DNA from: a virus
Taxonomy: Duplodnaviria; Caudoviricetes
Virus record (IMG/VR): IMGVR_UViG_3300025073_000989
Reading direction: 5' to 3' (one strand)
Length of the DNA stretch: 64,000 nt
This document shows, one piece after another, positions 1-54,006 of this stretch. The position numbers and the translations under genes are program-made. Below the pieces are notes generated by a model, which was given only the letters and a program-made list of their open reading frames with translations, was not told where the DNA came from and made no database searches. Positions within the stretch are counted from its first letter, which is position 1; every line of letters starts with the position of its first letter.

Positions 1-1055
1 ATGGTGACTAATTGTACTTCGTCAACAATGAATATATCATCCTCTAGTATGCTCAGCCCCTGTATAGCGTTTATCTGTATAGGCTCAAATTTATCTTTGA
101 ATATCTTTTCTTTTACATAATCATAGGCTACAAAACCCTCTTTGTTAGAGCTTTGATTTTTTGTATTAGCGTATATGTAATATAAACTAGATATAAATCC
201 AGCTAACCATGCTTCCATCTTATCTTCTATAAACCCAGGTAAAAACCCTATATCATATTTTGAGCTTATTCCTACCGGAGGTCTGGTTATAAACACTTTA
301 TTTGATGAGGCATTAAGTGCATAGGCTGTGGCTAGAATACTTTTACCAGATCCCCATTTACCGGTAAGTATAGTACATGGGGCATTTTTAAAAGCGTATA
401 TGGCACATACTTGGTAAGGGTCACTTGCTTTTATATTTTTTCCTTCTGTTTTTAAGTTGCGATATTGAGGTAAGTTATCTATCCTATGTATTTTATGCTC
501 TATTGGATTAGTTGCATACACATAACGTATGTTGTTATTTTCCTCAAATAAAATAAATTTCCAATAATTAGTATTGATTTCTTTGTCGTTGATGATTATT
601 ATATCACTATACTCTTGATTAAATGAAAAGTTAGCTAGGTCACTATTTATTTGGATCGTTATATATGGGTTGTGTATACCATTAGCTACAGGACCGTACA
701 AAACGGTTGGTACATTTTTTGTTTCGGCAATGATAGACATAGATATGTCTTTTGTGGCCAACTCAGCGTTATTATCTACAGCGGATTGAATTATTCTTAA
801 ATCGTTGGAGTCTATGTCTAGTTCATGTGGACCTACTGATAGAATTAGTTTATCTGGATACAGATGTTTGAATTGTAGTATTTCATTAATAGCACTTCTT
901 GCGCTATAAGATAGATCTGGTTTTAATTTTAATTTATCTAATTCTTTTAATACTGTAATTGGTATTATTATTTTATCATAGCTGTTTGAGAGTTTAAATA
1001 TTATTTTTGAATCGTCTAGTAATAAGTTTGTATCTATTATTATAGATTTAATCAT
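1..1055 (-). CDS. phoH: PIN-domain + PhoH-like ATPase (3' end runs off the window)
   Basis: Manual translation from ATG at 1055: MIKSIIIDTNLLLDD...IIIPITVLKELDKLK (PIN), Walker A GKWGSGKS, and GLSILEDDIFIVDEVQ at the window edge; absent from ORF track because incomplete. Confidence 0.88.
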   Translation of the reverse strand, partial: MIKSIIIDTNLLLDDSKIIFKLSNSYDKIIIPITVLKELDKLKLKPDLSYSARSAINEILQFKHLYPDKLILSVGPHELDIDSNDLRIIQSAVDNNAELATKDISMSIIAETKNVPTVLYGPVANGIHNPYITIQINSDLANFSFNQEYSDIIIINDKEINTNYWKFILFEENNNIRYVYATNPIEHKIHRIDNLPQYRNLKTEGKNIKASDPYQVCAIYAFKNAPCTILTGKWGSGKSILATAYALNASSNKVFITRPPVGISSKYDIGFLPGFIEDKMEAWLAGFISSLYYIYANTKNQSSNKEGFVAYDYVKEKIFKDKFEPIQINAIQGLSILEDDIFIVDEVQLVT

Positions 1056-3063: not shown

Positions 3064-3259
3064 ATATTATTTTCCCTCCAATAGTTATAGTGTCCACAAC
3101 AACACAATCACACTTATCGCCTCTACATTTTCTCTTTTTTCTCACTATTCCAGGTCTTGGTTTGTCTTCACTACAGACTCTAGGTTTACCTGATTCTTTT
3201 ATACTAATTAAATTGTCTATAATTAGGTGTAATTTATTTATATTCATTTTTATATTCAT
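3047..3259 (-). CDS. hypothetical protein
   Basis: ORF in minus-strand gene run. Confidence 0.55.
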   Translation of the reverse strand: MNIKMNINKLHLIIDNLISIKESGKPRVCSEDKPRPGIVRKKRKCRGDKCDCVVVDTITIGGKIIYGKQQ

Positions 3260-6772: not shown

Positions 6773-7312
6773 ATGAAAAACTGTAATCTTTTATACGATG
6801 TAATCGCTGCTCATCTCTTATGGCTGGAAACAAGCGGTATTTCAGGGAAAAGGGCCGACCTTAAAGGGGCCGATCTTAGATGGGCCAATCTTAGAGAGGC
6901 CAACCTTAGAAAGGCCAATCTTAGAGAGGCCAACCTTAGAAAGGCCAATCTTAGAGAGGCCGATCTAGAAGGGGCCGATCTGAAAAGGGCCAATCTAGAA
7001 GGGGCCGATCTTAGATGGGCCAATCTTAGAGAGGCCAATCTTAGAGAGGCCAACCTTAGAAAGGCCAACCTTGTAGGGGCCAACCTGGACTTCTCTTCAG
7101 GAATTCCATTTCACTGCGGAGGTACAGTGGCTAAGGGCGATGACTGCCTGTTCGCCCAAATACTGTACCACTTGACCAGACAGGACTGGTCAAACTGTTC
7201 TAAAGAAGTTCTGGAAGCTATCAAAATCATTAACAACATTAGATCGGCCAGCGGCGATAAGATAGTTGACCTGTTCTGTAAGTACAGGAAAGACGTAAAA
7301 ATACTTAATTAG
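6773..7312 (+). CDS. pentapeptide repeat protein, copy 1 (16 repeats)
   Basis: A[DN]Lxx repeats; AAGGAG RBS. Confidence 0.92.
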   Translation: MKNCNLLYDVIAAHLLWLETSGISGKRADLKGADLRWANLREANLRKANLREANLRKANLREADLEGADLKRANLEGADLRWANLREANLREANLRKANLVGANLDFSSGIPFHCGGTVAKGDDCLFAQILYHLTRQDWSNCSKEVLEAIKIINNIRSASGDKIVDLFCKYRKDVKILN

Positions 7313-20382: not shown

Positions 20383-20862
20383 ATGAAAAACTGTAACCTT
20401 TTGTACGATGTAATCGCTGCGCACCTCTTGTGGTTGGAAACAAGCGGTATTTCAGGGACAAGGGCCGATCTTAGAGGGGCCAATCTTAGAGAGGCCGATC
20501 TTAGAGGGGCCGATCTTAGAAAGGCCGATCTGAAAAGGGCCAATCTAGAAGGGGCCGATCTTAGAGAGGCCAATCTTAGAGAGGCCAATCTTAGAGAGGC
20601 CAACCTTAGAAAGGCCAACCTTGTAGGGGCCAACCTGGACTTCTCTTCAGGAATTCCATTTCACTGCGGAGGTACAGAAATCATAGGAGATGACCGGATG
20701 TTCGCCCAAATACTGTACCACTTGACCAGACAGGATTGGTCAAACTGTTCTGAAGAAGTTCTGGAAGCTATCAAAATCATTAACAACATAAGATCGGCCA
20801 GCGGCGATAAGATAGTCGACCTGTTCTGTAAGTACAGGAGTGACGTAAAAATACTTAATTAG
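20383..20862 (+). CDS. pentapeptide repeat protein, copy 3 (12 repeats)
   Basis: Near-identical DNA to 6773-7312 including flanks. Confidence 0.92.
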   Translation: MKNCNLLYDVIAAHLLWLETSGISGTRADLRGANLREADLRGADLRKADLKRANLEGADLREANLREANLREANLRKANLVGANLDFSSGIPFHCGGTEIIGDDRMFAQILYHLTRQDWSNCSEEVLEAIKIINNIRSASGDKIVDLFCKYRSDVKILN

Positions 20863-21354: not shown

Positions 21355-21446
21355 AGTGGATGGCGCCGGCGCGCAGGAGGGTCTTATAAACTCTTTAGCT
21401 GTAGATCACAGTTCTCGGGAGGGATCTACACCCTCATCCACTACCA
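21355..21446 (+). tRNA. atypical (allo-tRNA-like) tRNA, anticodon TAT, long variable arm
   Basis: AGTGGATG/CATCCACT-ACCA acceptor, GCGC-CGGC-GCGC mini D arm, ct-TAT-aa loop, agctgt/acagtt variable stem, non-canonical T loop ATCTACA. Confidence 0.6.
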
Positions 21447-21476: not shown

Positions 21477-22391
21477 ATGACATTTAAAAGTTTTTGTCCA
21501 CCAAGACAAAAAAGTAGTAAACCAACCAAGCAGTCCAACCGTAAACCAAATGTAGGAGAAAGAAAGACTATGGCACCAAGATTTGAGAAGGCAGTAGGAA
21601 TTGAAGTGGAATTTTTTGTAAAAAATGATAAGGGTGAGGTAGTAATGCCCGGTACTAATCTGGACAGGGATGATTTTCCACTTCTTGGAGAAATCAGAGC
21701 TGTTCAAGGTAAAACTATGGCTGAAGCCTTAGGCAATTTCTACAGAAAAAAAGTAGAAATGGAAGCTCTTTTAACAAAAAAGCAAGTTATGTCCATTTCA
21801 CACTTCGAACTTGCAAAGCTTAAGGTATACCAAGAAGCTATTAGGCTAATAACCGCACCAAAAAACAGTAAAGATATACGTAACATTTACGGAATCGATA
21901 TATCTGGTTTTACTGATCAAGTAGTTAAAGATGGTAAAATTCAAGGAGCTAATGTTTCCTGTGGTCTTCATATTCATCTCTCTTGTAGAGAAATTGATGA
22001 GGTTAAAGTGGAACAAGATGTTTATTCCGCAGTAAGTATACCAATTACTACTACCGCCTCAAAAGATGTTATTGGTCTTACCCATTTGGTTACTCCGTGT
22101 CTATCACTATTTAAACATGAAGGCACAAAGATTGAAAGAACGCTTATGGCATCTACATCAAAATTAAATCAGCCCACAATTGAATATATTGTTAGGGCTT
22201 TTGATGAAAAATTCTTTAAAAGATTTGCGCCGAAAAAAGAAGAATGCACAAAGTATCGTCAACCTGGATTCTTTGAACGGAAATCTTATGGTTTTGAATA
22301 TAGAAGCCTCCCCGCTAACGCAGAAACTATTAACGCTTTACCAGAGATAGTTGGTTTCGCGTTTGATATGCTAAAGCTAGCTTCAAGTTAA
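21477..22391 (+). CDS. COOH-NH2 ligase (phiEco32-type amidoligase), copy 1
   Basis: GIEVEFFV, CGLHIHLS, YGFEYRSLP motifs. Confidence 0.75.
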   Translation: MTFKSFCPPRQKSSKPTKQSNRKPNVGERKTMAPRFEKAVGIEVEFFVKNDKGEVVMPGTNLDRDDFPLLGEIRAVQGKTMAEALGNFYRKKVEMEALLTKKQVMSISHFELAKLKVYQEAIRLITAPKNSKDIRNIYGIDISGFTDQVVKDGKIQGANVSCGLHIHLSCREIDEVKVEQDVYSAVSIPITTTASKDVIGLTHLVTPCLSLFKHEGTKIERTLMASTSKLNQPTIEYIVRAFDEKFFKRFAPKKEECTKYRQPGFFERKSYGFEYRSLPANAETINALPEIVGFAFDMLKLASS

Positions 22392-22676: not shown

Positions 22677-22742
22677 AATGACGAGCAAGCAAAGCACGGG
22701 GCTATCAATGTATTTCTTATAATTAGATTAAAAATTTTGTTA

Positions 22743-22903
22743 GCTGATGTGCCGGAACTGGCATACGGCGGTGTGGATATAAGCCTATATGGATGGGGTT
22801 GAGCAATAAATAGCGGCCTTCTGGCTCAAGGCAAAAACCACCGTGGACTAAACAGCCAGACGTAATAGTCCTATTCGGGTTCGACTCCCGGTATCAGCTA
22901 CCA
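22743..22903 (+). ncRNA. 161-nt tRNA-shaped RNA with expanded anticodon arm and large variable arm
   Basis: Leu-type 5' end and D arm (GCTGATG TG CCGGAACTGGCATACGG), canonical T arm GGGTTCGACTCCC, 3' ACCA; 65-nt insert in place of the anticodon loop. Confidence 0.7.
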
Positions 22904-42799: not shown

Positions 42800-42874
42800 A
42801 TGTATATCTATACCTAAGAACCGGGTACTAATAACAAGTAAGCTTTTAACAAGTAAATTTTGGAGACAAAAACG

Positions 42875-44206
42875 ATGGCAAAAACAAATGTACCTCGTCA
42901 GGCAATATACACACATCAAGGAGCAAAATCAAAACATATTAGTCCGGAACAGCTGTTACGGCGATCAGTCATGAGCTGCTTATTGTGGGAAAACGAGTTT
43001 TATGAAGATGGTGAAACAATAGCTACAAGAATAGCAAATACCATTGCTCTAGTTGCTCCTGAAAAGGTAGCTTTAATAGCTATCGAAGCCAGAGAAAAAA
43101 TGAAATTAAGGCATATACCTTTATTTATAGTACGTGAAATGGCAAAACTTAATACACATAAATATTTAGTTTCACATACTTTAAATAGAATAATTCAACG
43201 AGCAGACGAACTTACAGAATTTCTAGCATTGTATTGGAAGGACGGTAAACGGCCGATTTCTGCGCAAGTTAAGAAAGGATTAGCTTCTGCTTTTTCTAAG
43301 TTTAATGAATATTCATTAGCAAAGTATAATAGTGATGGAGAAATAAAACTAAGGGATGTTCTTTTTCTTTCTCATGCTAAACCAAAAGATGAAGAACAGG
43401 CTACTTTATGGAAACGCTTAATAAACAACGAACTTGTTGTTCCAGACACTTGGGAAGTATCTCTATCTGCTGGAAAAGATAGAAAAGAAACTTGGGAGCG
43501 TTTAATAAACGAAGATAAACTTGGCGGTTTGGCTTTTTTGCGCAATTTAAGAAACATGAAAGCTGCTGGTGTTTCAGAAGATATTGTTTTTTATGGTCTA
43601 AATAAACTAAATGTAGAAAGAATTTTACCTTTTCGTTTTATTACTGCGGCTAGATATGCTCCCCAGTGGGAAGATGAAATCGAAACAGTGATGTTGAAAT
43701 GTCTAGAAAGCAAAAATAAACTAAAAGGAACTACAGCACTACTTATTGATAGATCAGGTAGTATGTGTAGAAAACTATCCGAAAAATCAGAACTTTCAAG
43801 ATATGATGCTGCTTGTGGACTGGCCGTACTAGTAAGAGAAGTAGCAGAGCATGTAAAGATATATACGTTTTGTGGAGGATCTGGTCGTACAGATATTCCA
43901 TTTGAGCTGTTACATATTCCACCAAGAAGAGGTTTCGGTTTAACGGCCGCCCTAGGGTCCTACAAAAACGCAGGAACTATGCTTGGAAGAGCAACTACTG
44001 AACTATATCAAAAAGATAATTTTGATAGACTAATTGTATTAACCGATGAACAGAGCCAAGATAAAGTACCAGATCCTAAAGGATTGGCTTATATGATAAA
44101 TGTAGCCTCTGCCAGAAACGGTGTAGGTTATGGTCCGTGGATTCACATCGATGGCTGGTCAGAAGCAGTAGTTGATTTTATTGAAACACTAGAAACAGTT
44201 AATTAG
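42875..44206 (+). CDS. rsr: Ro60/Rsr RNA-binding protein (TROVE + vWA)
   Basis: LRRSVMSCLLWENEFYEDG, RADELTEFLA, KFNEYSLAKY, TWEVSLS, AFLRNLRNM, vWA MIDAS LIDRSGSM, LTDEQS; GGAG RBS before ATG 42875. Confidence 0.92.
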   Translation: MAKTNVPRQAIYTHQGAKSKHISPEQLLRRSVMSCLLWENEFYEDGETIATRIANTIALVAPEKVALIAIEAREKMKLRHIPLFIVREMAKLNTHKYLVSHTLNRIIQRADELTEFLALYWKDGKRPISAQVKKGLASAFSKFNEYSLAKYNSDGEIKLRDVLFLSHAKPKDEEQATLWKRLINNELVVPDTWEVSLSAGKDRKETWERLINEDKLGGLAFLRNLRNMKAAGVSEDIVFYGLNKLNVERILPFRFITAARYAPQWEDEIETVMLKCLESKNKLKGTTALLIDRSGSMCRKLSEKSELSRYDAACGLAVLVREVAEHVKIYTFCGGSGRTDIPFELLHIPPRRGFGLTAALGSYKNAGTMLGRATTELYQKDNFDRLIVLTDEQSQDKVPDPKGLAYMINVASARNGVGYGPWIHIDGWSEAVVDFIETLETVN

Positions 44207-44222
44207 ATAAAGGAGAAGGATA

Positions 44223-44711
44223 ATGAAAATTATAGAAGGTCTTAGGAAGATCAAACAGCTTGATAGAAAAATTAAAAAAAATATCTTAAGGATTACGGAT
44301 TGGTCGTCTTATTTAGATAACATCGACCAAGCAGAAAAACCATTGTACGGTAAAGAAGAGTTACGGGTAATGATTCAGCAAATAGGAGATTGGTCTAAGG
44401 AAAAGGCGCGTATACGGCACAATATACATATAACCAACGCTTTAAAGAAGGTTATTTTCAAGGGTACGGAAATTACAGTAGATGAACTTTTACTTTTACA
44501 AAGTACTACTATTCCAGATATGCTAGCTGCACACAAAGCGCTAAATCGCAAAGATAAAGGGCGATTTGGTGTTCAAGACGTAAAGACAGTAGTAAGGTTA
44601 CAGTACGACCCAAAAGAAAAAGAAGTTGTAGTTGATAGTCTATTAAATGATTTAGAAATTATCGGTGATATCTTAGATAGAGTAACTTTAGAAACTGATA
44701 TTATTGAATAA
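44223..44711 (+). CDS. coiled-coil protein, DIP1984-like (tentative)
   Basis: MKIIEGLRKIKQLDRKI N-terminus and L..L...N/T C-terminal helix recall that family; family call unverified. Confidence 0.5.
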   Translation: MKIIEGLRKIKQLDRKIKKNILRITDWSSYLDNIDQAEKPLYGKEELRVMIQQIGDWSKEKARIRHNIHITNALKKVIFKGTEITVDELLLLQSTTIPDMLAAHKALNRKDKGRFGVQDVKTVVRLQYDPKEKEVVVDSLLNDLEIIGDILDRVTLETDIIE

Positions 44712-44728
44712 GCAACAAAAGTAAAAAG

Positions 44729-44947
44729 ATTTATACCTCTGATGGTAAAATTGATAAAAAGAAACTTTTACATTGGCGAGTGGGACCACCCACAATTGTG
44801 AGAATTGTGATTCAGGATTTGATTGTTAAGATTTAAAAATGCCACCGTGCTATGTTGATTTCCAAATAAAAATCCTAAATCTGGAAAAAAAAGTTTTTAG
44901 AAAGTTTCTCTCTCTTCAATACCAGTTAGGCAGTCAGAGGTATAAAT
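44729..44947 (+). ncRNA. candidate ~220-nt structured RNA
   Basis: Perfect 14-bp closing helix atttatacctctga/tcagaggtataaat with nested agaaacttt/aaagtttct and ggattt/aaatcc plus hairpins; no ORF. Confidence 0.7.
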
Positions 44948-44969
44948 TTTCAATTTATAGGAATTTGAA

Positions 44970-45419
44970 ATTGAAAAACTTCGAGCTTTAAGTAATAGCC
45001 TTGATACTACCACACAACACTATTCTACATGTACAGAAATTATTGATGAATTAGTAAAGCTGCGTCAACGGTGTTACCCATCAAGAGTAGTAATAGTAGA
45101 TGGTATCGGCCATTATGTTAGTACGGCAATTGCTGAAGAAATTGAGCGATTACGCAGCAAACTTGATGACCTTGATAAAAAAGAAAATCTTAACAAAGAA
45201 AACTGTTCTTTACCGATAAGAGGGTTAACTCCCTACTCCATAAGAAAGACAAGATTTTGGTTTTTTTATTATAAATTTGAAATTCTTTTTGATGAAGACC
45301 CTATCTATAGTGTTATAAGTGGTTCTTCTTGCTATAGTGAAATAAAACAAATTTGTGCTGCGTTGAATGGTGCTTTTAATTTAGAATATTCAGAAAGGGT
45401 ACTAGATCAACTTAAGTGA
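44970..45419 (+). CDS. hypothetical protein with probable ATT start (missed by ORF track)
   Basis: 150-codon open frame, AGGA 7 nt upstream, stop overlaps next start (GTGA). Confidence 0.55.
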   Translation: MEKLRALSNSLDTTTQHYSTCTEIIDELVKLRQRCYPSRVVIVDGIGHYVSTAIAEEIERLRSKLDDLDKKENLNKENCSLPIRGLTPYSIRKTRFWFFYYKFEILFDEDPIYSVISGSSCYSEIKQICAALNGAFNLEYSERVLDQLK

Positions 45420-45793
45420 TTTGTTATCATGTACTGGAGACACTTATGTTGCCCAAAAAAATTGAAGACATAGTAAAACCGGTTGTTGAAAAGTTTGTTG
45501 CTGAAAGAAATGGCTTTTATCGAAAACATTGCAGCGATATTCTGCTTACCTCTTTAATAGTTTTTCAGCTTGGGCTTCCCTCGCGCCGCGACGAAAACAA
45601 AACAGTCGCGGAAGTTATTATCAAAGGCGATCAAAATGAAGCCTACGGCGCTGTTTGCTGGCTTTTTGAAAGCATTCTAGAAGGCAACTGTTGTGCTGGT
45701 GGTAACGGGCATCACGTTGCCCAAAAATTTGCTGCAGCAATGGATGTGCTGCGGTGTAATATTGACGTTGGAAGAGAAAATGATTCAGACTAA
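45416..45793 (+). CDS. hypothetical protein
   Basis: ORF in plus-strand run. Confidence 0.65.
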   Translation: MICYHVLETLMLPKKIEDIVKPVVEKFVAERNGFYRKHCSDILLTSLIVFQLGLPSRRDENKTVAEVIIKGDQNEAYGAVCWLFESILEGNCCAGGNGHHVAQKFAAAMDVLRCNIDVGRENDSD

Positions 45794-45812
45794 AGAGCTA
45801 GTAAAATAACAA

Positions 45813-45885
45813 GGAGATGTATTTCAAAGGGGAGAATGTTGGCCAGTTGGGCGTGAAGGTGTAAGTTCGAATCTTGCCATCTTTT
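45813..45885 (+). pseudogene. degenerate tRNA
   Basis: GGAGATG/CATCTTT acceptor and GTTCGAATC T loop, but broken anticodon arm and no CCA. Confidence 0.55.
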
Positions 45886-45904
45886 TGTTTAAAAATAATA
45901 TAAT

Positions 45905-45991
45905 GCATCTATGGCGGAACTGGTAGACGCCTGGGACTTAAAATCCCATGGGTATACGCCCGTCCCGGTTCGACTCCGGGTAGGTGCACCA
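45905..45991 (+). tRNA. trnL: tRNA-Leu (TAA)
   Basis: Class II cloverleaf, ct-TAA-aa loop, encoded CCA. Confidence 0.94.
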
Positions 45992-45994
45992 TTA

Positions 45995-46072
45995 CTGCGT
46001 GTAGCTCAGTCTGGCCAGAGTACGTGCCTTGGACGCACGAAGTCGTTCGTTCGAATCGAACCACGCAGACCA
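45995..46072 (+). tRNA. trnP: tRNA-Pro (TGG)
   Basis: C1-G72, A73, ct-TGG-ac loop, encoded CCA. Confidence 0.9.
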
Positions 46073-46100
46073 AAACAAAACTAAAAAATAGGACAATACT

Positions 46101-46400
46101 ATGGAAATAGAAGATTTTCCTTGTTGCTGTACCGCCAAAGTATTAAAGAACTTTGGGGAAACGCATGTTACTGAAGGCCAATTCGTAAAAGAAGAAGAAA
46201 AGGCTTTAGAAGAAAGGATAGTAAAATATACTAATAGATATAGTTCTTTAGCAGTACTTACTACTATTACAAACAGCGAGCAAAAGACGGCAAATAAGGT
46301 ATTAAAAAAATTAGGGTTTAAATCCACCAAGTGGTTAAAAAAGGTTCAACATAAAGAAACTAAAATTAAGCTTTGGTGGAAACCGCTATATAAGGAGTAA
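46101..46400 (+). CDS. hypothetical protein, possibly degenerate GNAT fold
   Basis: TNSEQKTANKVLKKLGF resembles GNAT motif B. Confidence 0.45.
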   Translation: MEIEDFPCCCTAKVLKNFGETHVTEGQFVKEEEKALEERIVKYTNRYSSLAVLTTITNSEQKTANKVLKKLGFKSTKWLKKVQHKETKIKLWWKPLYKE

Positions 46401-46413
46401 ACTAGTTTAGTGA

Positions 46414-46488
46414 TGGGGTATCGCCAAGCGGTAAGGCACAAGACTTTGACTCTTGTTATCGAGGGTTCAAATCCTTCTACCCTATCCA
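46414..46488 (+). tRNA. trnQ: tRNA-Gln (TTG)
   Basis: Full cloverleaf, ct-TTG-ac loop, encoded CCA. Confidence 0.92.
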
Positions 46489-46504
46489 GAATAAAAGGTT
46501 AATT

Positions 46505-46810
46505 ATGAAACTTGATAGAGGTACAATAGTTAAATGGCAAATTCATAAATTAAATTTAACTAAAAAACAATTAAAAGACTACTATCCTGAAGTAAAGATA
46601 GCACCTGCAGTTTTTACTGGAACAGTGGAAGAAGATCCAACAGGTAGATACTCCTCCGGATACCACATGAGGTCATCTTTAATAGTTTCAATAAAACGAA
46701 AAGGGGATATACAAATAGTAGAAACTTTAAACTCTATATATAAACTTAAAGGTCTTCCTGGCGACATTTTTCCTGATTTAGGAAATGATGCTTTGAATAT
46801 TTTTTATTAA
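46505..46810 (+). CDS. hypothetical protein
   Basis: AAGG RBS; GYHMRSSLIV...ETLNSIY. Confidence 0.7.
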   Translation: MKLDRGTIVKWQIHKLNLTKKQLKDYYPEVKIAPAVFTGTVEEDPTGRYSSGYHMRSSLIVSIKRKGDIQIVETLNSIYKLKGLPGDIFPDLGNDALNIFY

Positions 46811-46832
46811 TGGAAGTAAATTTGATTTTGAA

Positions 46833-46997
46833 TGGGAATGTGGCGAAAGTTAAACGCAGATTTAGATAGTTATACTACTAGATGAATAACTATTCTAAAA
46901 ATCCGTCTCGTGTTTACATTAGAAGTACAGGGTAATTCCGTATTATCTATATATAGACCAATATAGACTTGTAGGTATCGAATCCTGCCATCCCACC
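46833..46997 (+). ncRNA. second ~165-nt tRNA-shaped RNA with elongated anticodon and variable arms
   Basis: Leu-type D arm GGCGAAAGTTAAACGC, long anticodon hairpin, gtct/agac variable region, gtagg-tatcgaat-cctgc T arm; imperfect acceptor and no clean CCA. Confidence 0.55.
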
Positions 46998-47010
46998 GAT
47001 AAAATTTAAG

Positions 47011-47048
47011 AAAACGGGAGCAATAGCCAACTATTTCTCCCGTTTTTT
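47011..47048 (+). terminator. intrinsic terminator
   Basis: aaaacgggag...ctcccgttttttt. Confidence 0.8.
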
Positions 47049-47079
47049 TATTGAGAAGTTAAATTAACAGGAGACACCA

Positions 47080-47326
47080 ATGCTACTACAACTAATCTAT
47101 TTTTATTTTGTTATTATTTTATTGACTTTTTTATATCGCTGTAGAGTCGAAAGAAATAAAAACAATAACCCGATAGAAAAATGGAAAAAAAACACACTGG
47201 GTTGAGAGCTGTCTAATTAGTTTGTTTTGGCCATTTGTAGTTATTTTTATTGTTATGCTGCTTATTGTAGTTTTTATAATTGAGCTACCTTATAAATTAA
47301 CTAAGGAGAGAATCCGCCGCGGTTAA
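47080..47326 (+). pseudogene. membrane protein frameshifted in an A8 run (47185-47192)
   Basis: Removing one A joins two hydrophobic segments into one ORF; AGGAG RBS. Confidence 0.55.
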
Positions 47327-47339
47327 CAATAATTTAAAG

Positions 47340-47414
47340 TGCGGGGTCGAGGAGTGGCACCTCAGAAGGTTCATATCCTTCGTCACGGCAGTTCGATTCT
47401 GCCCCCCGCTTCCA
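47340..47414 (+). tRNA. trnM: tRNA-Met (CAT), initiator-like
   Basis: T1:T72 mismatch, A11-T24, tt-CAT-at loop, encoded CCA. Confidence 0.85.
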
Positions 47415-47441
47415 TAAAAAACTAGAAGAAGAATTGAAACT

Positions 47442-47732
47442 ATGCTACGATCTATAAAATTATTAGTTTTTCTATTTTTATTTTTATTTTTTCTACTTTC
47501 CTTTGCTAAAGCTGGAGATTACGATAAATATTATATCAATATACCAAAACTTATTGATTGTCAAACTATTAAAATAGATGAAACTTTTTTGAATGAAAAA
47601 AAGGCTATACTGTCTCCAGTGTATACCGCTTCAACTATATTAATCTGTTTTTGGGAAGTAGAGATTAAAGGTAAAAAATTGATACTTTTGAAACGTCCTG
47701 GAAGAAATGAATTCGGAGTAGTAAATGAATAA
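47442..47732 (+). CDS. secreted hypothetical protein
   Basis: Signal peptide ending AKA-GD. Confidence 0.65.
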   Translation: MLRSIKLLVFLFLFLFFLLSFAKAGDYDKYYINIPKLIDCQTIKIDETFLNEKKAILSPVYTASTILICFWEVEIKGKKLILLKRPGRNEFGVVNE

Positions 47733-47791
47733 ATAAATAGTCCAATTAGCATATTTTATTTTATAGAGGGTAGTTAAATTAAGGTCATAAA

Positions 47792-48535
47792 ATGCCAAAA
47801 GAGAATATAATTATTGTTGGAGACATACATGGTAAATGGGGAGAGATAAATTTTCTAATTAATAAGAAAAGTCCTAGAATTGTACTTCAGTGTGGTGACT
47901 TTGGGTTTTTTCCAAAGTTCCATAATACAAGAGGAATAGACTCAGAAGAATTTGAAATGTATGAACATACCAAAATCAGAAAACCATGGAATCAATACGG
48001 TATTAAAAACCCTAATACCGTGGTATATTTTGCTCCCGGTAATCATGAGGACTGGAATTCTTTAGATGAGTTAGAAGTAAATAAAAATTTTGAATTAATG
48101 CCAAACGTATTTTATCAACCATTTGGTAGTACAATTACTCTTCCAGACGGGAGAACGGTACTATTTTGTGGCGGAGCTAGATCTATTGACAGAGACTGGC
48201 GCACCTCAGGGGTAGATTGGTTTGAACAAGAAGAAATAAGTTATAGAGATATGGATAGACTTCCAAACATAGCTGTAGATATAGTTATATCCCATACTTG
48301 CCCTGAAGAAATAATGCTTCAGATGAGTACTAAAGGAATTTACTATGACCAAACAAACCCTTTACACAAAGACTCATCGCGGCAAGCTCTTTCATACATA
48401 ATGGAAAAATATAAACCAGATTTATGGTATTTTGGGCACTTTCATAGAGAAATTAAAGGTATGTGGAAGAATACTAGATGGTATGCTTTGTCTATGCCTG
48501 AAGGACATGGTAGGTGGTGGAGATACCTAAAATAA
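47792..48535 (+). CDS. calcineurin-like metallophosphoesterase
   Basis: GDIHG, CGDFG, GNHED, SHTCP, GHFH. Confidence 0.9.
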   Translation: MPKENIIIVGDIHGKWGEINFLINKKSPRIVLQCGDFGFFPKFHNTRGIDSEEFEMYEHTKIRKPWNQYGIKNPNTVVYFAPGNHEDWNSLDELEVNKNFELMPNVFYQPFGSTITLPDGRTVLFCGGARSIDRDWRTSGVDWFEQEEISYRDMDRLPNIAVDIVISHTCPEEIMLQMSTKGIYYDQTNPLHKDSSRQALSYIMEKYKPDLWYFGHFHREIKGMWKNTRWYALSMPEGHGRWWRYLK

Positions 48536-48547
48536 AGGAAAATATAA

Positions 48548-48973
48548 GTGTATATACCAGTAGAAGAAGAAAAACTTAAAAAATATGAAACATGGACAGA
48601 AGAAATTTTTGAACAAAAAGATTCATTATCTAACGGAGCAGTACCTCTGTTGTTTTTGTTTGGTGCAAATAAAATAAAAATGTGTAGATGTTATATAAGA
48701 TTCTCACCTAGCATTGTAATTATTGAAAATCTATGTATGCATGAAGTATCTGGAGTATTTTCAACCAGAATTAAGGAAATGTTTTTAACTTTAGCCATAA
48801 GAAGACTAATAACACTAACAAAGAGTGGTGGAAAAAAAGAATTAGTAATTTTTACTAGTAATAAGCTTTTACCTGAAATTTTTATCAATAACGGTTTCAA
48901 ATTTAGAAAAACACTTCCACATGAATTTGGAGAATACAGAGGATCCTTCCTTTTAGGAGATAAATTCAATTGA
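48548..48973 (+). CDS. hypothetical protein, possibly degenerate GNAT fold
   Basis: C-terminal EIFINNGFKF resembles GNAT motif B. Confidence 0.45.
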   Translation: MYIPVEEEKLKKYETWTEEIFEQKDSLSNGAVPLLFLFGANKIKMCRCYIRFSPSIVIIENLCMHEVSGVFSTRIKEMFLTLAIRRLITLTKSGGKKELVIFTSNKLLPEIFINNGFKFRKTLPHEFGEYRGSFLLGDKFN

Positions 48974-49779
48974 ATACTATTTATTTAGAACCACCATCAA
49001 CTGTAGATCTATTTTATCCAAACGACAATATGGAGTTTGCTTTTTGTTCTAGGATTAAACGAGAAAGAGTCTCACAAATAACTGTATTTGCAAAATGTCG
49101 TGAGGTGTTAACCGGTTTTATTAGAACGCAACTGTGTGGTTTTGATCCAAACGCTATACCGTGGTTTTATGTAAGAAAGCGTATAGATTTATTAAAAGTT
49201 AGAATGTTAGTTTTAAAAAGATATACACCCGGAACAGAAATAAATAAAGCGCTGATTTTTAACAACGAAGTGGAGTTTGGAATTAGAATTTTAAATTTAT
49301 TTGAAAAAAAACTAAAATGGACAGAAACTAAAGTTTATAAGGTAGAGTTAATTAAGGAATTATATACTAATGCAATTCCTGATCTCTATATGATAGAGGC
49401 CTCGAAACAATGGTTATTTTCTCCGGCCTGTTTCTCTTTGTTTTTATTATTATTTAGAGCCGGAAAATATTATAGAGATTTATCTGTAAAAGATATTTCG
49501 TCTTTTTTAGCCAGTATAGCTGATAAAAAAATGGAAGAACACTTACATTATAAAAAAGATCAGTGGTTAATATTTCTTAAAAATACCAATAGAATATATA
49601 AAAAAAATATAATAGAACGATACAGACCAGAAAATATAATAAAACGATACAGACCAGAAAGAGTATATAGTAACTCAAAAGAGGGTATATTTTCCATGCT
49701 AAGTGGAACAACAGTGGATAAAGTGTCTTATAAAGCATGGAAAAATATTTTAGATGAACAAGGTAAACAAGATGCTTAG
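48970..49779 (+). CDS. hypothetical protein, paralog family C
   Basis: FAF...CREVL...IDL.K.RMLV shared with 50942-51730. Confidence 0.75.
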   Translation: MNTIYLEPPSTVDLFYPNDNMEFAFCSRIKRERVSQITVFAKCREVLTGFIRTQLCGFDPNAIPWFYVRKRIDLLKVRMLVLKRYTPGTEINKALIFNNEVEFGIRILNLFEKKLKWTETKVYKVELIKELYTNAIPDLYMIEASKQWLFSPACFSLFLLLFRAGKYYRDLSVKDISSFLASIADKKMEEHLHYKKDQWLIFLKNTNRIYKKNIIERYRPENIIKRYRPERVYSNSKEGIFSMLSGTTVDKVSYKAWKNILDEQGKQDA

Positions 49780-50923
49780 TATCGTAGAGTTTATAAAAAA
49801 ATGTAAAGACATCGATTTAGTAAATCAACTACTATGTTTAAAATTAAAGTTAAATATTAAAAAACAGCCAATAGCTTTAAAGGCTGGAAACACCGAATAC
49901 TTATACCTATACAATCGTACTGAAAAGTCCCCTAATTGTATTATTTCTAACGAAGCTAATGGTTTAATCTTAGATAAAGAAGGAAAAGTAGTAAGTAGAA
50001 GCCTTAATCATTTATATAATGGTGAAAGCTTTAAAGAAAAAATTGATTGGGATAAAGCAACAGCAGAAGAATTTATAGATGGAGTACAAGTTACACTATT
50101 TTTTTACAAAGACTATTGGTTTATACAAACTAGAGATGATATTAACGGTAGAAATTTAATTCATCAGAATGATATTTGGAGTATTAACTACGAAGTGTCA
50201 CATTTGCTTCAAAAACAAAGATATTACACAAATATCTTTAATCAGCTAGATAAAGATAAAACATATACATTTGTATACGTTCGTGCACAAGAAGTACAAA
50301 ATTTAGATAGTAATAAAAACAAACTGTATTTAATAGCAATTTATAATAAAGAGACTGAAGGGTACTTAACTGAAGAAGAGCTAGATGAATATAAATTAAT
50401 TTCTGGTTTTAGTAGACCAAGAAGATTCGCAACAGTATCATTTTCTTATTTTAATAAAAGAATTACTGATTTTTCTACTTTAGTAGTTGTTAACCAAGAC
50501 ATTTCTAAAAAACCCAAAGTAGAACAAAGATTTAAGTTCGAAAGAAAGGCGGAAACACAAAACGAGACCTCAGTTGTTATAAAATACTTAGCAGAAAAAG
50601 TAATTCAAGGAAGGCATCAAGAGGTATCATTAAAAAATTTTCCAGAGTATAGAAGACTAATAGCTTTATTTATAAGAGTAAAATTAGATATAATTTCTTT
50701 TGTACAAAAAACAATAAAAGAAAATAAAGAAACATCCTTAACTACTTTTAGTGAGCAAATAAAAAGACATCACCTAAGCGATATACTGATTGCATCTAAA
50801 AAAACTCCCGAAAGTATTAGGATAAACGTAAGCAGAATAGACAGTAGTAGATTTATTAAACTAGCACAGATAAGATATTGGACACAATATGACGATGCTA
50901 TAAATGCAAGTAAAACTATATAG
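49772..50923 (+). CDS. T4 Rnl1-like RNA ligase fold, catalytic Lys apparently replaced
   Basis: EANGLILDKEGKVVSRSLNHLYN (cf. ECRGLI..SRPF.KFFN); motif I reads EFIDG instead of KxDG. Confidence 0.7.
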   Translation: MLSIVEFIKKCKDIDLVNQLLCLKLKLNIKKQPIALKAGNTEYLYLYNRTEKSPNCIISNEANGLILDKEGKVVSRSLNHLYNGESFKEKIDWDKATAEEFIDGVQVTLFFYKDYWFIQTRDDINGRNLIHQNDIWSINYEVSHLLQKQRYYTNIFNQLDKDKTYTFVYVRAQEVQNLDSNKNKLYLIAIYNKETEGYLTEEELDEYKLISGFSRPRRFATVSFSYFNKRITDFSTLVVVNQDISKKPKVEQRFKFERKAETQNETSVVIKYLAEKVIQGRHQEVSLKNFPEYRRLIALFIRVKLDIISFVQKTIKENKETSLTTFSEQIKRHHLSDILIASKKTPESIRINVSRIDSSRFIKLAQIRYWTQYDDAINASKTI

Positions 50924-50941
50924 TGAGGATGTGAGTACAAA

Positions 50942-51730
50942 ATGCCAGAAAATATAAAATGGTTTACAGAAACAGGAAATCTTTGCGAAATCTACCAAGC
51001 TGTAGGTATGTATTTTTCTTTTTTATCTAGTCCTAAAGATGAAAATAAACAGTGCCATTGTTGGGTAAAATGTAGGGACTTTTTACATGATGCCTTAAGG
51101 GCCCAAATAAACAATAGTAGTTGTTCTATATATGCTTTTGATTTTAATGTTAATATAAACCCTCCAATTGATCTGAAAAGAACCAGAATGTTAGTTAAAT
51201 TTAAAAACTACAGGGACTTTGAGAAACAAAAAAAAATAATTCAATCAGCCAAAAAACTTTTAAACTTCTATGAAGAGCTCGCTGGAAGTACTTTTACTAA
51301 AGTAAGTATAACCACAGATAAAGACGATGTGCCTGTATGGATTTTTAATGGGCCCGCATTTTGGCAAAAAGCCCCTTTCTTAATTTCTATGTTTACTTTA
51401 TTAATAAGGCTTGGGGATAAAGAACTAGTTTTTCAGAACTTAGCAGAACTAATTTCGGTACTAAAAGAAAAAAGTGAAAGTACAGATGCAACTAAAGATA
51501 ATGATATTAAATATCTATCTGTTCTATATAATAAATTAAATATTATAGTAGAAAATTGGAGACTACTAGCTGACAAAAAACTAAATTTATTTAGTGATGG
51601 TGTTGGTATAGGTCTATTTCATAATAATTACGGTGTACTGAGCTTGGCCAAACTAGTTACTCCAAATAAAGAATTAAACAATGCAATGAAAACATTACTT
51701 AGTAATACTAATAGGGAAGTAAAGTGCTAG
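50942..51730 (+). CDS. hypothetical protein, paralog family C
   Basis: FSF...CRDFLH...PIDLKRTRMLV. Confidence 0.75.
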   Translation: MPENIKWFTETGNLCEIYQAVGMYFSFLSSPKDENKQCHCWVKCRDFLHDALRAQINNSSCSIYAFDFNVNINPPIDLKRTRMLVKFKNYRDFEKQKKIIQSAKKLLNFYEELAGSTFTKVSITTDKDDVPVWIFNGPAFWQKAPFLISMFTLLIRLGDKELVFQNLAELISVLKEKSESTDATKDNDIKYLSVLYNKLNIIVENWRLLADKKLNLFSDGVGIGLFHNNYGVLSLAKLVTPNKELNNAMKTLLSNTNREVKC

Positions 51731-51995
51731 AAAATAAAGTAACAGAAAAAAGAAAATTATCAAGAATTAAAGGTATTAGTAGTGAGAAATCCTACGTTGA
51801 AAAAGCTACCAATAAAAGACCTCAATTCGCTTTTCTAAGTTCTCAAGCTGATATAAGTTTTTAGCTTGTAGAGATTTTTTACATGAAATAGTAACAGCTG
51901 CTATAAATCATACAAGAGATCCATACGGCTATTGGACTAGCGAAAATAGTTCACCAATAGATTTAGAAAAATTAAGATTATTAATTCAAAAGTAA
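51724..51995 (+). pseudogene. frameshifted/truncated third copy of family C
   Basis: QFAFL then, after a T5 slip at 51858-51862, ACRDFLHE...PIDLEKLRLLI. Confidence 0.65.
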
Positions 51996-52024
51996 ATAAG
52001 AAAAACAACGGAGGACTTTAAACT

Positions 52025-52939
52025 ATGAAAAGATTTACAATTGGTACTGACCCGGAATTTTTTCTAAAAGAAAAAGAAACCGGAAAATTAGTATCAGCCA
52101 TACCATATATTAACGGAACAAAGCATGAACCTGAAGCCCTACCATCTGGTGGTACTATTCAAAGGGATAATGTAGCAGTAGAATTTGCAACTGCACCAGC
52201 AGTCTCAATGGATGACTTTATAAAAAAGATCAGAGAAACATTCAAAGATGTACTTAAAGTAATTCCAGATAATTTCGATTTAGTAGCAACACCATCTGCT
52301 GTATTTGATGATGATCAATTAGAACACCCTGACGCTTTGACTTTCGGATGTGATCCAGATTATAACGCTTGGACCATTTCCGAAAACTCTGAAAATAATA
52401 AACCTAGTCATCCGAACAAAAACTTTAGAAGCTGTGGGGGCCATATACACGTTGGACATGTAAGCGGTGATGGTAACGATTTTCTGCTAGATCCTTTTGG
52501 TAAAATTAATATGGTTAGGGGTATGGATCTAGTTCACGGAATAGTATCAGTTATACTAGATAGTTCTATCGAGTCGATAGAAAGAAGAAAGCTGTACGGA
52601 AGCGCCGGCTGTCACCGCCCAACAGACTATGGAGTTGAGTATAGAGTTCTAAGTAATTATTGGCTAAAGAGCCCTTTTCTAGTAATGCTTATGGATTCTT
52701 TAACACAAGATGTTTTAAAGTTAATTAAAGAAAACAAACTTAATCAACTTATTAATTTTGTTGGTGAACAAGAAATTCAAAGTATTATAAACAATGGAGA
52801 TGTCGCAAATGCCAATAGTATTTTTAATAAAGCTATAAAGAGCTGTCTAAGTGCAGATTCTATTTTTTACTTTGAAGAGAGTCTAAAGAGAGTTGAAAAT
52901 ATTAACCTGAAAAAAGAATGGGGACTTGAGGAGGTCTAA
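52025..52939 (+). CDS. phiEco32-like COOH-NH2 ligase type 2
   Basis: IGTDPEFFL, QRDNVAVEF, GCDPDYNAW, GGHIHVG, YGVEYRVLSN. Confidence 0.9.
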   Translation: MKRFTIGTDPEFFLKEKETGKLVSAIPYINGTKHEPEALPSGGTIQRDNVAVEFATAPAVSMDDFIKKIRETFKDVLKVIPDNFDLVATPSAVFDDDQLEHPDALTFGCDPDYNAWTISENSENNKPSHPNKNFRSCGGHIHVGHVSGDGNDFLLDPFGKINMVRGMDLVHGIVSVILDSSIESIERRKLYGSAGCHRPTDYGVEYRVLSNYWLKSPFLVMLMDSLTQDVLKLIKENKLNQLINFVGEQEIQSIINNGDVANANSIFNKAIKSCLSADSIFYFEESLKRVENINLKKEWGLEEV

Positions 52940-53734
52940 ATGTCAAAACGTATTGCAATTCCGGCCAGTAAAAGTAAAAATCAATTTTTTATTAATCAAG
53001 CGTATATTGAATATTTAACACAGGCTGGGTATGAGGTAGTAATAGTTACACCATCAAGTAGTATACATGACACTGTAGCATCATGTTTTGGTTTAGTACT
53101 ACCTGGTGGAATTGATATAGACCCGATTTATTATGGAGAAGATAATATATGTTGCCAAGGAAGTGACCCGGAAAAAGATGATTTCGAAAGGAAGTTGTTT
53201 TATTCTTTCTTGAATCAAAACAAACCAATATTTGGTATATGCCGTGGTTTCCAATTGATAATGCGAGAGCTTATAGTCAACAAAATTCCTGGATATAAGT
53301 CTTTTTGTTTCTATCAGAATTTAAATAGGCACAAAAATGTAGACGAGCTAGGAATAGCAAGGACAATACCAAGCCATAGTGTTACAGCAGCAGTTGGTAC
53401 TTTGTATGGAGTGGAAGAACTATATAGCAGCATATTTGTAAATTCTATGCACCATCAAGCAGTAATTATTAAAGTAGAAAGAAAAACAAACCCTTTAGTC
53501 CAAGTAGGACAGATATTTCCTCTAGCTGTAACAAAAATAGGTCTAACGAGTAATATTTCCAACGAAGAGATTAAGAAGAAAACCAAAGAGGCTTTTGTAG
53601 TAGAAGCTTTAGGGGCAAGTATAAATAACACAAAAATAAGAGCAGTACAATGGCACCCGGAAGAGCTTCGAGATATAGCTCTATTACAAAACTTCTTTGG
53701 TGAAAAAGAAGAAAAGTTAATTGTAGGTAAATAA
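52940..53734 (+). CDS. class I glutamine amidotransferase, peptidase C26 family
   Basis: LPGGIDIDP, GICRGFQ nucleophile elbow, VNSMHHQ, QWHPE. Confidence 0.9.
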   Translation: MSKRIAIPASKSKNQFFINQAYIEYLTQAGYEVVIVTPSSSIHDTVASCFGLVLPGGIDIDPIYYGEDNICCQGSDPEKDDFERKLFYSFLNQNKPIFGICRGFQLIMRELIVNKIPGYKSFCFYQNLNRHKNVDELGIARTIPSHSVTAAVGTLYGVEELYSSIFVNSMHHQAVIIKVERKTNPLVQVGQIFPLAVTKIGLTSNISNEEIKKKTKEAFVVEALGASINNTKIRAVQWHPEELRDIALLQNFFGEKEEKLIVGK

Positions 53735-53736
53735 AT

Positions 53737-54006
53737 ATGGTAGACACTATAGACGATAATAAACTTAATGCCACAAGATGGAAACTAACTGTTTCTAGAG
53801 AGAACGGTACTACAGAACTTGAGCGCCTCGGCTTATCGCAACTCAAGCCTGTTTTAAAAAGAATAAAAGAACAGAACCCAAATAGTGATGGAGTTAAATT
53901 AATAAATACTACATTACTTGTGTTTGCTTACATTGAACACTTCCTACAAGAGAGTCCACTTTCTTCACCAGTAGACAGAATACAAATACAACCGCTTGAT
54001 ACATAA
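53737..54006 (+). CDS. hypothetical protein
   Basis: Within amidoligase cluster. Confidence 0.6.
   Translation: MVDTIDDNKLNATRWKLTVSRENGTTELERLGLSQLKPVLKRIKEQNPNSDGVKLINTTLLVFAYIEHFLQESPLSSPVDRIQIQPLDT

Follow-up and report, generated by a model that had tools for sequence, protein, structure and literature searches.

We analysed a stretch of viral DNA of 64,000 nucleotides (nt), from the IMG/VR record IMGVR_UViG_3300025073_000989 (Duplodnaviria; Caudoviricetes), which is called the window below. The element in question is a gene of about 160 nt at 22742-22903 (+) for an RNA that has the frame of a transfer RNA (tRNA). A preliminary description of this DNA, made by a model from the sequence alone, had recognised the acceptor stem, a Leu-type D arm, the T arm and an ACCA end, and had counted an eighth acceptor base pair if A22742 is included. 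All of these can be confirmed in the sequence, as can the two further elements that it named, a stem CGGUG/CACCG (22769-73 with 22839-43) that closes off 65 nt and a variable arm GGACUA/UAGUCC. The parts of the RNA are as follows.

22742-22749 (+): acceptor stem, 5' strand AGCUGAUG; 7 base pairs (bp) and an extra A-1:U73 pair; partner 22892-22899
22750-22768 (+): U8-G9 and the D arm, CCG / GAACUGGCAUA / CGG (D arm 22752-22768), Leu-type class-II
22769-22775 (+): P3, 5' strand (C GGUG U G) at the anticodon-stem position, U22774 bulged; partner 22838-22843
22776-22782 (+): J3/4, purine-rich internal-loop strand GAUAUAA, carrying the first conserved GGAU
22783-22785 (+): P4, 5' strand GCC; partner GGC 22830-22832
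22786-22794 (+): J4/5, conserved single strand UAUAUGGAU; family consensus NAUAYGGAU
22795-22820 (+): P5 hairpin, GGGGUUG / 12-nt A/U-rich loop / CGGCCUU; strands 22795-801 with 22814-820
22821-22829 (+): pseudoknot strand CUGGCU (22821-26), then conserved CAA; partner AGCCAG 22854-22859
22830-22843 (+): P4 3' strand GGC, J AAAAA and P3 3' strand CCACCG, from the alignment
22845-22871 (+): variable arm, 27 nt; GGACUA/UAGUCC (22845-50 with 22866-71), inner 2-bp AC/GU, 8-nt loop AGCCAGAC
22875-22891 (+): T arm UCGGG UUCGACU CCCGG; 4/5 stem pairs covary, GUUC.A..C invariant
22892-22903 (+): acceptor 3' strand UAUCAGCU, then ACCA, read from the sequence

In the acceptor stem GCUGAUG (22743-22749) is paired with UAUCAGC (22892-22898), A22742-U22899 forms the eighth bp, and ACCA follows at 22900-22903. 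The CCA is encoded by the gene in this copy, as it is in the ordinary tRNAs of the window; most other members of the family described below do not encode it, and one (contig L255) encodes C-CCA. The D arm is nearly the same as that of the window's own tRNA-Leu(UAA) at 45904-45993. The first six bases of the variable-arm loop AGCCAGAC are the partner of the pseudoknot strand.

The RNA is not seen by the usual programs. ARAGORN finds eight tRNAs in the window and makes no call at 22742-22903, and Rfam 15 at gathering thresholds has no match at the locus. Even at E <= 10 Rfam gives no tRNA, transfer-messenger RNA (tmRNA), intron, ribozyme or riboswitch match between 22650 and 23000, and riboswitch and ribozyme families were rejected on this ground.

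A family of RNAs in phage tRNA clusters

Homologues were searched for by distant blastn over 50,697 phage records, followed by pattern scans built from the blocks common to the window and Synechococcus phage S-CRM01. This phage is the only match among the records: its copy (135460-135593) sits in an unannotated 375-bp gap of the tRNA cluster, between tRNA-Ala and tRNA-Val. The window itself has no near relative among the same records. The pattern scans added 12 IMG/VR contigs (7-279 kb) and about 20 metagenome contigs. The family comprises about 27 distinct sequences; besides S-CRM01, its sources are large contigs of uncultured freshwater and marine phages. With the covariance model R1, 28 of 28 sequences score 138-174 bits.

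A strict pattern applied to 185,579 prokaryote species gave one chance match, in a Vibrio coding region, and no true copy; chance matches were recognised because they have nothing in common with the family beyond the pattern. No second copy was found at any family locus. Within the limits of these scans, the RNA family is confined to phages.

The carriers are diverse. They range from the T4-like cyanophage S-CRM01 over jumbo phages of 277-279 kb to the window's phage, with its putative multisubunit RNA polymerase. One of the carriers (G003, 277 kb, 98% complete) is shown by its psbA gene to be a cyanophage, as is S-CRM01.

At all 18 loci with nearby tRNA genes, the tRNAs are on the strand of the RNA, which lies among or beside them. 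At most of these loci it is found inside a dense tRNA array (32 tRNAs in L241, 18 in L234), and the spacer to the neighbouring tRNA can be as short as about 14 nt. Seven short or tRNA-poor contigs have no tRNA near the RNA.

A few other features were observed at family loci. In the four contigs of a marine subgroup (L206, L247, L248, L257) a conserved hairpin, GCACACCGGUUAAAGUGUGC, is present about 15-45 nt upstream of the RNA; it is repeated just downstream of the RNA in L248 and may be a processing or promoter-associated element. In S-CRM01 another unannotated region of about 150 nt (135609-135759; L001 3150-3300) separates the family member from tRNA-Val. In contig L252 an 85-nt 'tRNA-Stop' with anticodon UUA is called by ARAGORN at 526-610 (-), about 100 nt from the family member, and is possibly an ochre suppressor. 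Further, two pentapeptide-repeat proteins of the window, 6773-7312 and 20383-20862 (+), have 67-70% identity over 56-78 residues to a stretch of G002, a 279-kb phage contig that also carries the RNA.

Comparative evidence for the fold

The structure was taken from RNAalifold with the addition of one pseudoknot spotted by eye, and was tested on an alignment of 21 sequences with 46 pairs (966 cells). Standard pairs are found in 95.2% of the cells, compared with 71.5% in shuffles and 33-48% when the partners are slid. Changes on both sides are seen in 31 of the 46 pairs, and the observed measures are reached by none of 500 shuffles. The preliminary description had made its case depend on whether homologues keep the fold, and the approximately 27 homologues do.

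The support is spread over all helices. In the acceptor helix, all eight alignment pairs show compensatory changes, and the eighth bp forms in 14 of the 21 members, including the window copy. The three pairs of the D stem all covary, with the versions CCG/CGG, CUG/CAG, CCC/GGG, GCG/CGC and GUG/CAC. P3, in which GGUG-(U)-G is paired with CCACC in addition to a 26-44 pair, has 93.7% of its cells paired, and its covariation is in the two outer pairs (26-44 and the one adjoining it). P4 (GCC/GGY in the family) is paired in 100% of cells, with double changes to GUC/GAC in L078 and L267. P5 has 8 bp in the family, 95.8% of cells paired and compensatory changes in 5 of 8 pairs; its loop differs in both sequence and length. 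The variable arm has a stem of 5-6 bp, in which all five stem pairs and both inner pairs are compensated, and its pairs have the highest mutual information of the whole alignment.

The element that ties the molecule together is the pseudoknot. Directly 3' of P5 the sequence CUNGCU pairs with AGCNAG in the variable-arm loop, forming 6 bp. Its third pair, counted in 28 members, is A-U in 16, G-C in 7 and U-A in 5, and it is never mismatched.

The tRNA body shows the features expected of a canonical tRNA: a 7-bp acceptor, a 5-bp T stem with a GTTCRANYC loop, a D arm with G18G19, and the tertiary pairs 8-14, 15-48, 18-55 and 19-56. The elbow contacts U8-A14 and G18-U55 are present in 20 and 21 of the 21 members, respectively. 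The Levitt pair 15-48 covaries, being A15-U48 in 18 members and G15-C48 in 3. From the conserved helices, the elbow contacts and the pseudoknot, it follows that the RNA would have an L-shaped tRNA body whose lower limb is a rod, P3-P4-P5, tied to the variable arm. A mutual-information search for more tertiary pairs gave just noise outside the known helices and the pseudoknot. In the literature searches we found no report of this predicted architecture, in which the loop of the variable arm forms a pseudoknot with an extended anticodon arm.

The insert in the place of the anticodon arm is the best-conserved portion of the RNA. Near-invariant unpaired stretches are GUGUGGA, AAGCC, AUAYGGAUGGG, CUCCU-GCUCA-GG, AAAC, AGC-AGAC and the AA 3' of the inner variable-arm stem; these make up the most likely functional surface. 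In J3/4, G37 and A38 are near-invariant and columns 42/100 covary as C-G or A-A, and in J4/5 the bases A48, U49 and A50 and the GGAU are invariant in the 21 sequences.

A hairpin UUGAGC/GCUCAA inside the insert had been part of the preliminary description. It can indeed be formed here (22799-804 with 22824-829), but the family does not conserve it. Its 3' arm takes up the conserved GCUCA strand, part of the CUNGCU-CA whose partner is the variable-arm loop. Other members lack the hairpin, and it was therefore rejected as the functional fold.

The energy of folding of the single sequence is unremarkable (z = -0.99). As the single-sequence fold is not unusually stable, the case depends on the comparison with other sequences. 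The same value speaks for the reading that the gene is a tRNA-Leu pseudogene in decay, carrying a junk insertion, or that the resemblance is due to chance. This reading has next to no chance of being right: it is refuted by the covariation, with about 27 homologues in very different phages, a nearly invariant insert and compensation in every helix. By this comparative evidence, we are dealing with a real, conserved, phage-specific RNA family, and we found it described nowhere. The literature searches, which included a paper on cyanophage non-coding RNAs (PMC9964418) and one on allo-tRNAs (PMC5389517), returned no description of it. The earlier proposal of an undescribed tRNA-framed non-coding RNA is in agreement with this, as there is nothing of the kind in Rfam 15 or in the literature searched.

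Decoding, charging and the probable role of the RNA

A 7-nt anticodon loop with U33 is absent from every member of the family; in the window the stem encloses 65 nt instead. The RNA is almost certainly unable to read codons.

An anticodon loop could be restored if the gene were that of an ordinary tRNA with an intron, removed to yield a functional class-II tRNA. The insert does lie in the anticodon arm, which is the site of bacterial and phage tRNA introns, and when ARAGORN is relaxed and introns are allowed it forces a call on 21 of 21 members. However, the forced calls are spread over 14 identities, amino acids or stop, and over two intron positions. At default thresholds the intron-allowing search is silent in 14 of the 21 members; in the other seven no two anticodons agree, six amino acids are represented, and the 'intron' is placed at two positions. 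No deletion from the RNA gives back a U33-NNN-R37 loop, which bears out the earlier observation that no anticodon loop is rebuilt by removing the insert. Equally correct was the remark that the insert is too short for a group I intron: it has 65 nt compared with about 200 nt or more, and no Rfam intron model matches. Further, no part of the molecule is better conserved than the insert, and the insert pairs, through a covarying helix, with the variable arm, which would be exon. We consider an intron highly improbable.

Another tRNA-shaped molecule to be considered is tmRNA (SsrA), which resembles the family in having no anticodon, in containing pseudoknots and in its occurrence in some large phages. 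It differs in its invariant G3-U70, its lack of a D stem, its tag frame and its length of 230-400 nt, whereas the RNA of the family is 160 nt long and has a complete D arm, a 3-70 pair that varies and no reading frame that is conserved. The absence of G3-U70 had been noted before and holds: the window has C-G at tRNA position 3-70 (columns 4/165), which is variable in the family, as are columns 3/166 with GC, UA, AU, GU, CG and non-pairs. A tmRNA, also in its permuted form, was rejected on these grounds, with Rfam and ARAGORN silent; the relaxed tmRNA mode of ARAGORN fires in 3 of 21 members, with differing tags.

Several smaller candidates were rejected as well. A short open reading frame (ORF) starting at the conserved AUG of GGAUGGG is not supported, as the frames, on inspection of the alignments, differ in where they end or stay open. 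An anticodon in the P5 loop (AUGCUAA or AUACUAA) is present in some members only. Resemblances in short words to a CsrA-type GGA site, TwoAYGGAY, the 11-nt tetraloop receptor, group I R/S elements, signal recognition particle (SRP) RNA and 5S rRNA, were unsupported. Finally, the tRNAs of the 8/5 or 8/4 type, which are tRNA-Sec-like or allo-tRNAs, combine an acceptor stem of 8-9 bp with a functional anticodon loop (PMC5389517), and such a loop is absent from all members.

Among ordinary tRNAs the model R1 scores tRNA-Leu highest in three unrelated phages, at 37-43 bits, compared with 16-32 for tRNA-Ser and 13 for tRNA-Tyr. The value is 39.6 bits for the window's tRNA-Leu(UAA). In T4 it is 36.8 for tRNA-Leu against 32.4 for tRNA-Ser, and in contig L342 it is 43.1 and 39.8 for tRNA-Leu against 16-18 for Ser and 13 for Tyr. 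Features of tRNA-Leu are A15-U48, a 3-bp D stem and the loop GAAYUGGNAKA. Together with the A15-U48 found in 18 of 21 members, the scores justify the label 'Leu-type' that the frame had been given. Three members (L231, L078, L245) have a Ser-like D loop and G15-C48 in place of the Leu type. The family is in these respects like a class-II tRNA-Leu (RF00005), sharing the acceptor, U8, the 3-bp D stem with GAAYUGGNAKA, A15-U48, the long variable arm and the T arm. It is unlike it in having no 7-nt anticodon loop, 65 nt more in the anticodon stem, a pseudoknotted and conserved variable-arm loop and a discriminator that is not conserved.

A connection to the Ro60 protein had also been suggested, and the window has a gene for a Ro60 orthologue at 42860-44206 (+) (Pfam TROVE, 3.8e-16; PHROG 850, 2.5e-42). 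The RNA would then be a Y RNA, the partner of this protein; bacterial and phage Y RNAs have tRNA-like domains (PMC4201824). The YrlA-type Y RNAs resemble the family in being non-decoding, in their tRNA-like D/T elbow, in their handling by tRNA enzymes (which for the family is presumed) and in their occurrence in phages (PMC4201824). YrlA, however, is circularly permuted: its order is V-T-AS-D, it ends in the anticodon-side (Ro-binding) stem and its acceptor stem is closed by a loop (Chen et al. 2014, PMC4201824). It binds Ro60 through a 5' GNCGAAN0-1G motif and its gene lies beside rsr, at a distance of <=4 kb (PMC4201824). None of this is true of the family. The order here is the normal one, acceptor-D-rod-V-T-acceptor, the motif is missing from the RNA as read from its sequence, and the gene is 20 kb from that of Ro60. 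Further, a TROVE gene is present in none of five other phage records that carry the RNA, two of which are >=98% complete, and a search of 34 viral Ro60 loci (each +/-5 kb) turned up no copy of the RNA. The suggestion of a Ro60 partner was not borne out, and we give hardly any credence to a Y RNA.

What remains as the preferred reading, at a probability of about 0.6, is that the RNA is a stable non-decoding tRNA mimic whose effector would be the knot. The RNA would be transcribed together with the tRNAs and excised by RNase P and the enzymes that process tRNA 3' ends. Its tRNA body would be a scaffold for processing and stability, and possibly also bait for a factor that recognises the tRNA shape. 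The working part would be the invariant knotted domain with its two GGAU motifs, AUAY, CAW and AAAC, for which a protein of the host or the phage, or else a ligand, is the probable binding partner. The RNA would in this way work as a decoy or sponge instead of in decoding.

Several points weigh against this reading. How long the RNA is, where it ends and how stable it is are predictions from its sequence, and the covariation fits a pseudoknot inside one molecule as well as one between two alike. A conserved protein-gene neighbour of the RNA was not found across the carrier loci; the clusters common across lineages appear to be stop-to-stop frames over tRNA genes or the RNA (short spans, on both strands). 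None of the window's ORFs is common to all other RNA-bearing genomes. Those that do recur in such genomes are a metallophosphoesterase, an RNA-ligase-like protein, pentapeptide proteins and a few others, and none of them is present in S-CRM01. Finally, every frame in the family is either Leu-type or Ser-type. Leucyl-tRNA synthetase (LeuRS) and seryl-tRNA synthetase (SerRS) do not read the anticodon, so charging of the RNA is possible, and the 3' end in the window, A-CCA after an 8-bp stem, is like that of a chargeable tRNA.

The last two points belong to an alternative in which the RNA is a charged, anticodon-less tRNA derivative. LeuRS, or SerRS for the Ser-type members, would aminoacylate it, and the amino acid would be delivered outside normal decoding; the RNA could have a tmRNA-like action on the ribosome, be a donor for an aminoacyl-tRNA-dependent transferase, or act as a synthetase sink. 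The marks of tRNA-Leu described above (class-II shape, A15-U48, the GAAYUGGNAKA D loop and the best R1 match among ordinary tRNAs) are in favour of it, and so are the indifference of both synthetases to the anticodon and the A-CCA and C-CCA ends of the window copy and L255. The discriminator, at position 73, speaks on both sides. It is A in 10 of the 21 members, but U in 7, C in 3 and G in 1, whereas the identity elements of tmRNA are invariant, and this lack of conservation argues mildly against aminoacylation. The acceptor pairs also vary freely across the family. Further, G3-U70 is absent, there is no conserved reading frame or resume codon, with relaxed tmRNA calls in few members and with differing tags, the type of the D loop shifts between Leu-like and Ser-like inside the family, and the variable arm that SerRS needs is locked in the pseudoknot. 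A charged RNA is possible, yet we regard it as doubtful.

A more specific form of this alternative seems unlikely to us, namely that the host synthetase charges the RNA with leucine (serine in some lineages) in spite of the missing anticodon and that it serves a phage-directed process outside decoding. In that case the RNA would enter stalled or host ribosomes, or feed an aminoacyl-tRNA-dependent transferase, and the pseudoknot-locked rod would exclude it from the decoding site. If true, it would be the second natural class of aminoacylated, anticodon-less tRNA-like RNA, beside tmRNA.

The nearest known RNAs in genomic setting are the species 1 and 2 RNAs of T4 (rnaC and rnaD; L259 2909-3047 and 3054-3172). 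These are small stable RNAs in a phage tRNA cluster, a setting shared with the family, and their roles are still unknown (PMC3014915, PMC9697503). The 3' part of T4 rnaC resembles a tRNA in its acceptor stem and its canonical T arm, and these two elements account for all of the 24.1 bits that R1 gives rnaC over the 3' 98 nt. T4 rnaC is unlike the family in having no D arm, no AAGCC...GGAUGGG...CUAGCUCA core and no pseudoknot between the variable-arm loop and the inner loop. We found no demonstrable homology in sequence or predicted structure between rnaC or rnaD and the family; what they appear to share is the genomic setting only. The fold of the family is better defined than that of the T4 RNAs, and the family therefore offers a tractable handle on the question of what the T4 RNAs do.

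The architecture of the family would be a natural counterpart of the engineered 'tRNA scaffold' RNAs, reportedly the work of Ponchon and Dardel in 2007. In these, and also in the tRNA-miRNA chimeras of gammaherpesviruses, a tRNA body provides for the processing and stability of a foreign module at the anticodon arm or downstream. They are artificial or come from eukaryotic viruses, whereas the module of the family is natural, phage-borne and tied to the variable arm.

In general, phage tRNA arrays are taken to be codon-supply kits. The family indicates that in very different large phages they also hold a conserved, elaborately folded, tRNA-shaped RNA that does not decode, and that every standard annotator overlooks it. 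S-CRM01 and Synechococcus LC16 are an isolated phage-host pair, and the family is therefore accessible to experiments.

Further RNAs and genes of the window

The preliminary description had named a second instance of the RNA at 46833. The element at 46833-47000 (+) is 168 nt long and tRNA-framed; its anticodon arm is extended and long, its variable region has about 65 nt, and it is followed by a strong terminator (47014-47047). It is not a second instance: R1 gives it 20 bits, for the generic tRNA frame only, and it has none of the core motifs of the family. No homologue was found in the phage collection or at the Ro60 loci. One IMG/VR contig (L342) contains a relative, at 3158-3246, with the same D arm UGUGGCGAAAGUUAAACGC and the same 8-nt T loop UAUCGAAU, which is unusual; this relative is an 89-nt long-arm tRNA-Phe(GAA) whose anticodon loop is normal. 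The element looks like an expanded derivative of such an odd tRNA-Phe(GAA)-like tRNA, and is a singleton without covariation support. It contains GGCGAAAG, which fits the Ro-binding motif of YrlA, and the Ro60 gene lies 2.6 kb upstream of the element, on the same strand. For this element alone, the motif and the proximity therefore make a link to Ro60 a candidate.

The Ro60 gene itself is part of a set of RNA-handling genes near the tRNA cluster, at 42860-55462 (+). The others are a calcineurin-like phosphoesterase (47792-48535), an RNA-ligase-like protein (49754-50923, PHROG 562) and a protein with a weak nucleotidyltransferase match (53996-55462, +). Together these genes look like an RNA-repair module.

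Two further tRNAs of the window deserve mention. The one at 45813-45885 (+) is a tRNA according to Rfam, at 33.5 bits barely over the gathering score, and is not called by ARAGORN. The other, at 21355-21446 (+), is an odd tRNA of 92 nt, called Ile(UAU) by ARAGORN and below the Rfam gathering threshold for tRNA. It has an 8-bp acceptor, AGUGGAUG/CAUCCACU, followed by ACCA, which is the same design of the end as in the RNA at 22742-22903. Its T loop, AUCUACA, is non-canonical, its D region is GC-only and its variable arm is long.

Between this odd tRNA and the RNA at 22742-22903 lies a gene (21477-22391, +) for an amidoligase-like protein, recognised in the ESM Atlas by feature and structure similarity only, to phiEco32-type ligases and glutamate-cysteine ligases. 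Another COOH-NH2 ligase/amidoligase-like protein (Pfam PF14395) is encoded at 52025-52939 (+). Finally, the product of 59862-63170 (+), 1102 amino acids long, weakly matches an Rpb1 domain of RNA polymerase and PHROG families annotated 'RNA polymerase beta subunit', which points to a jumbo phage that encodes a multisubunit RNA polymerase of its own.

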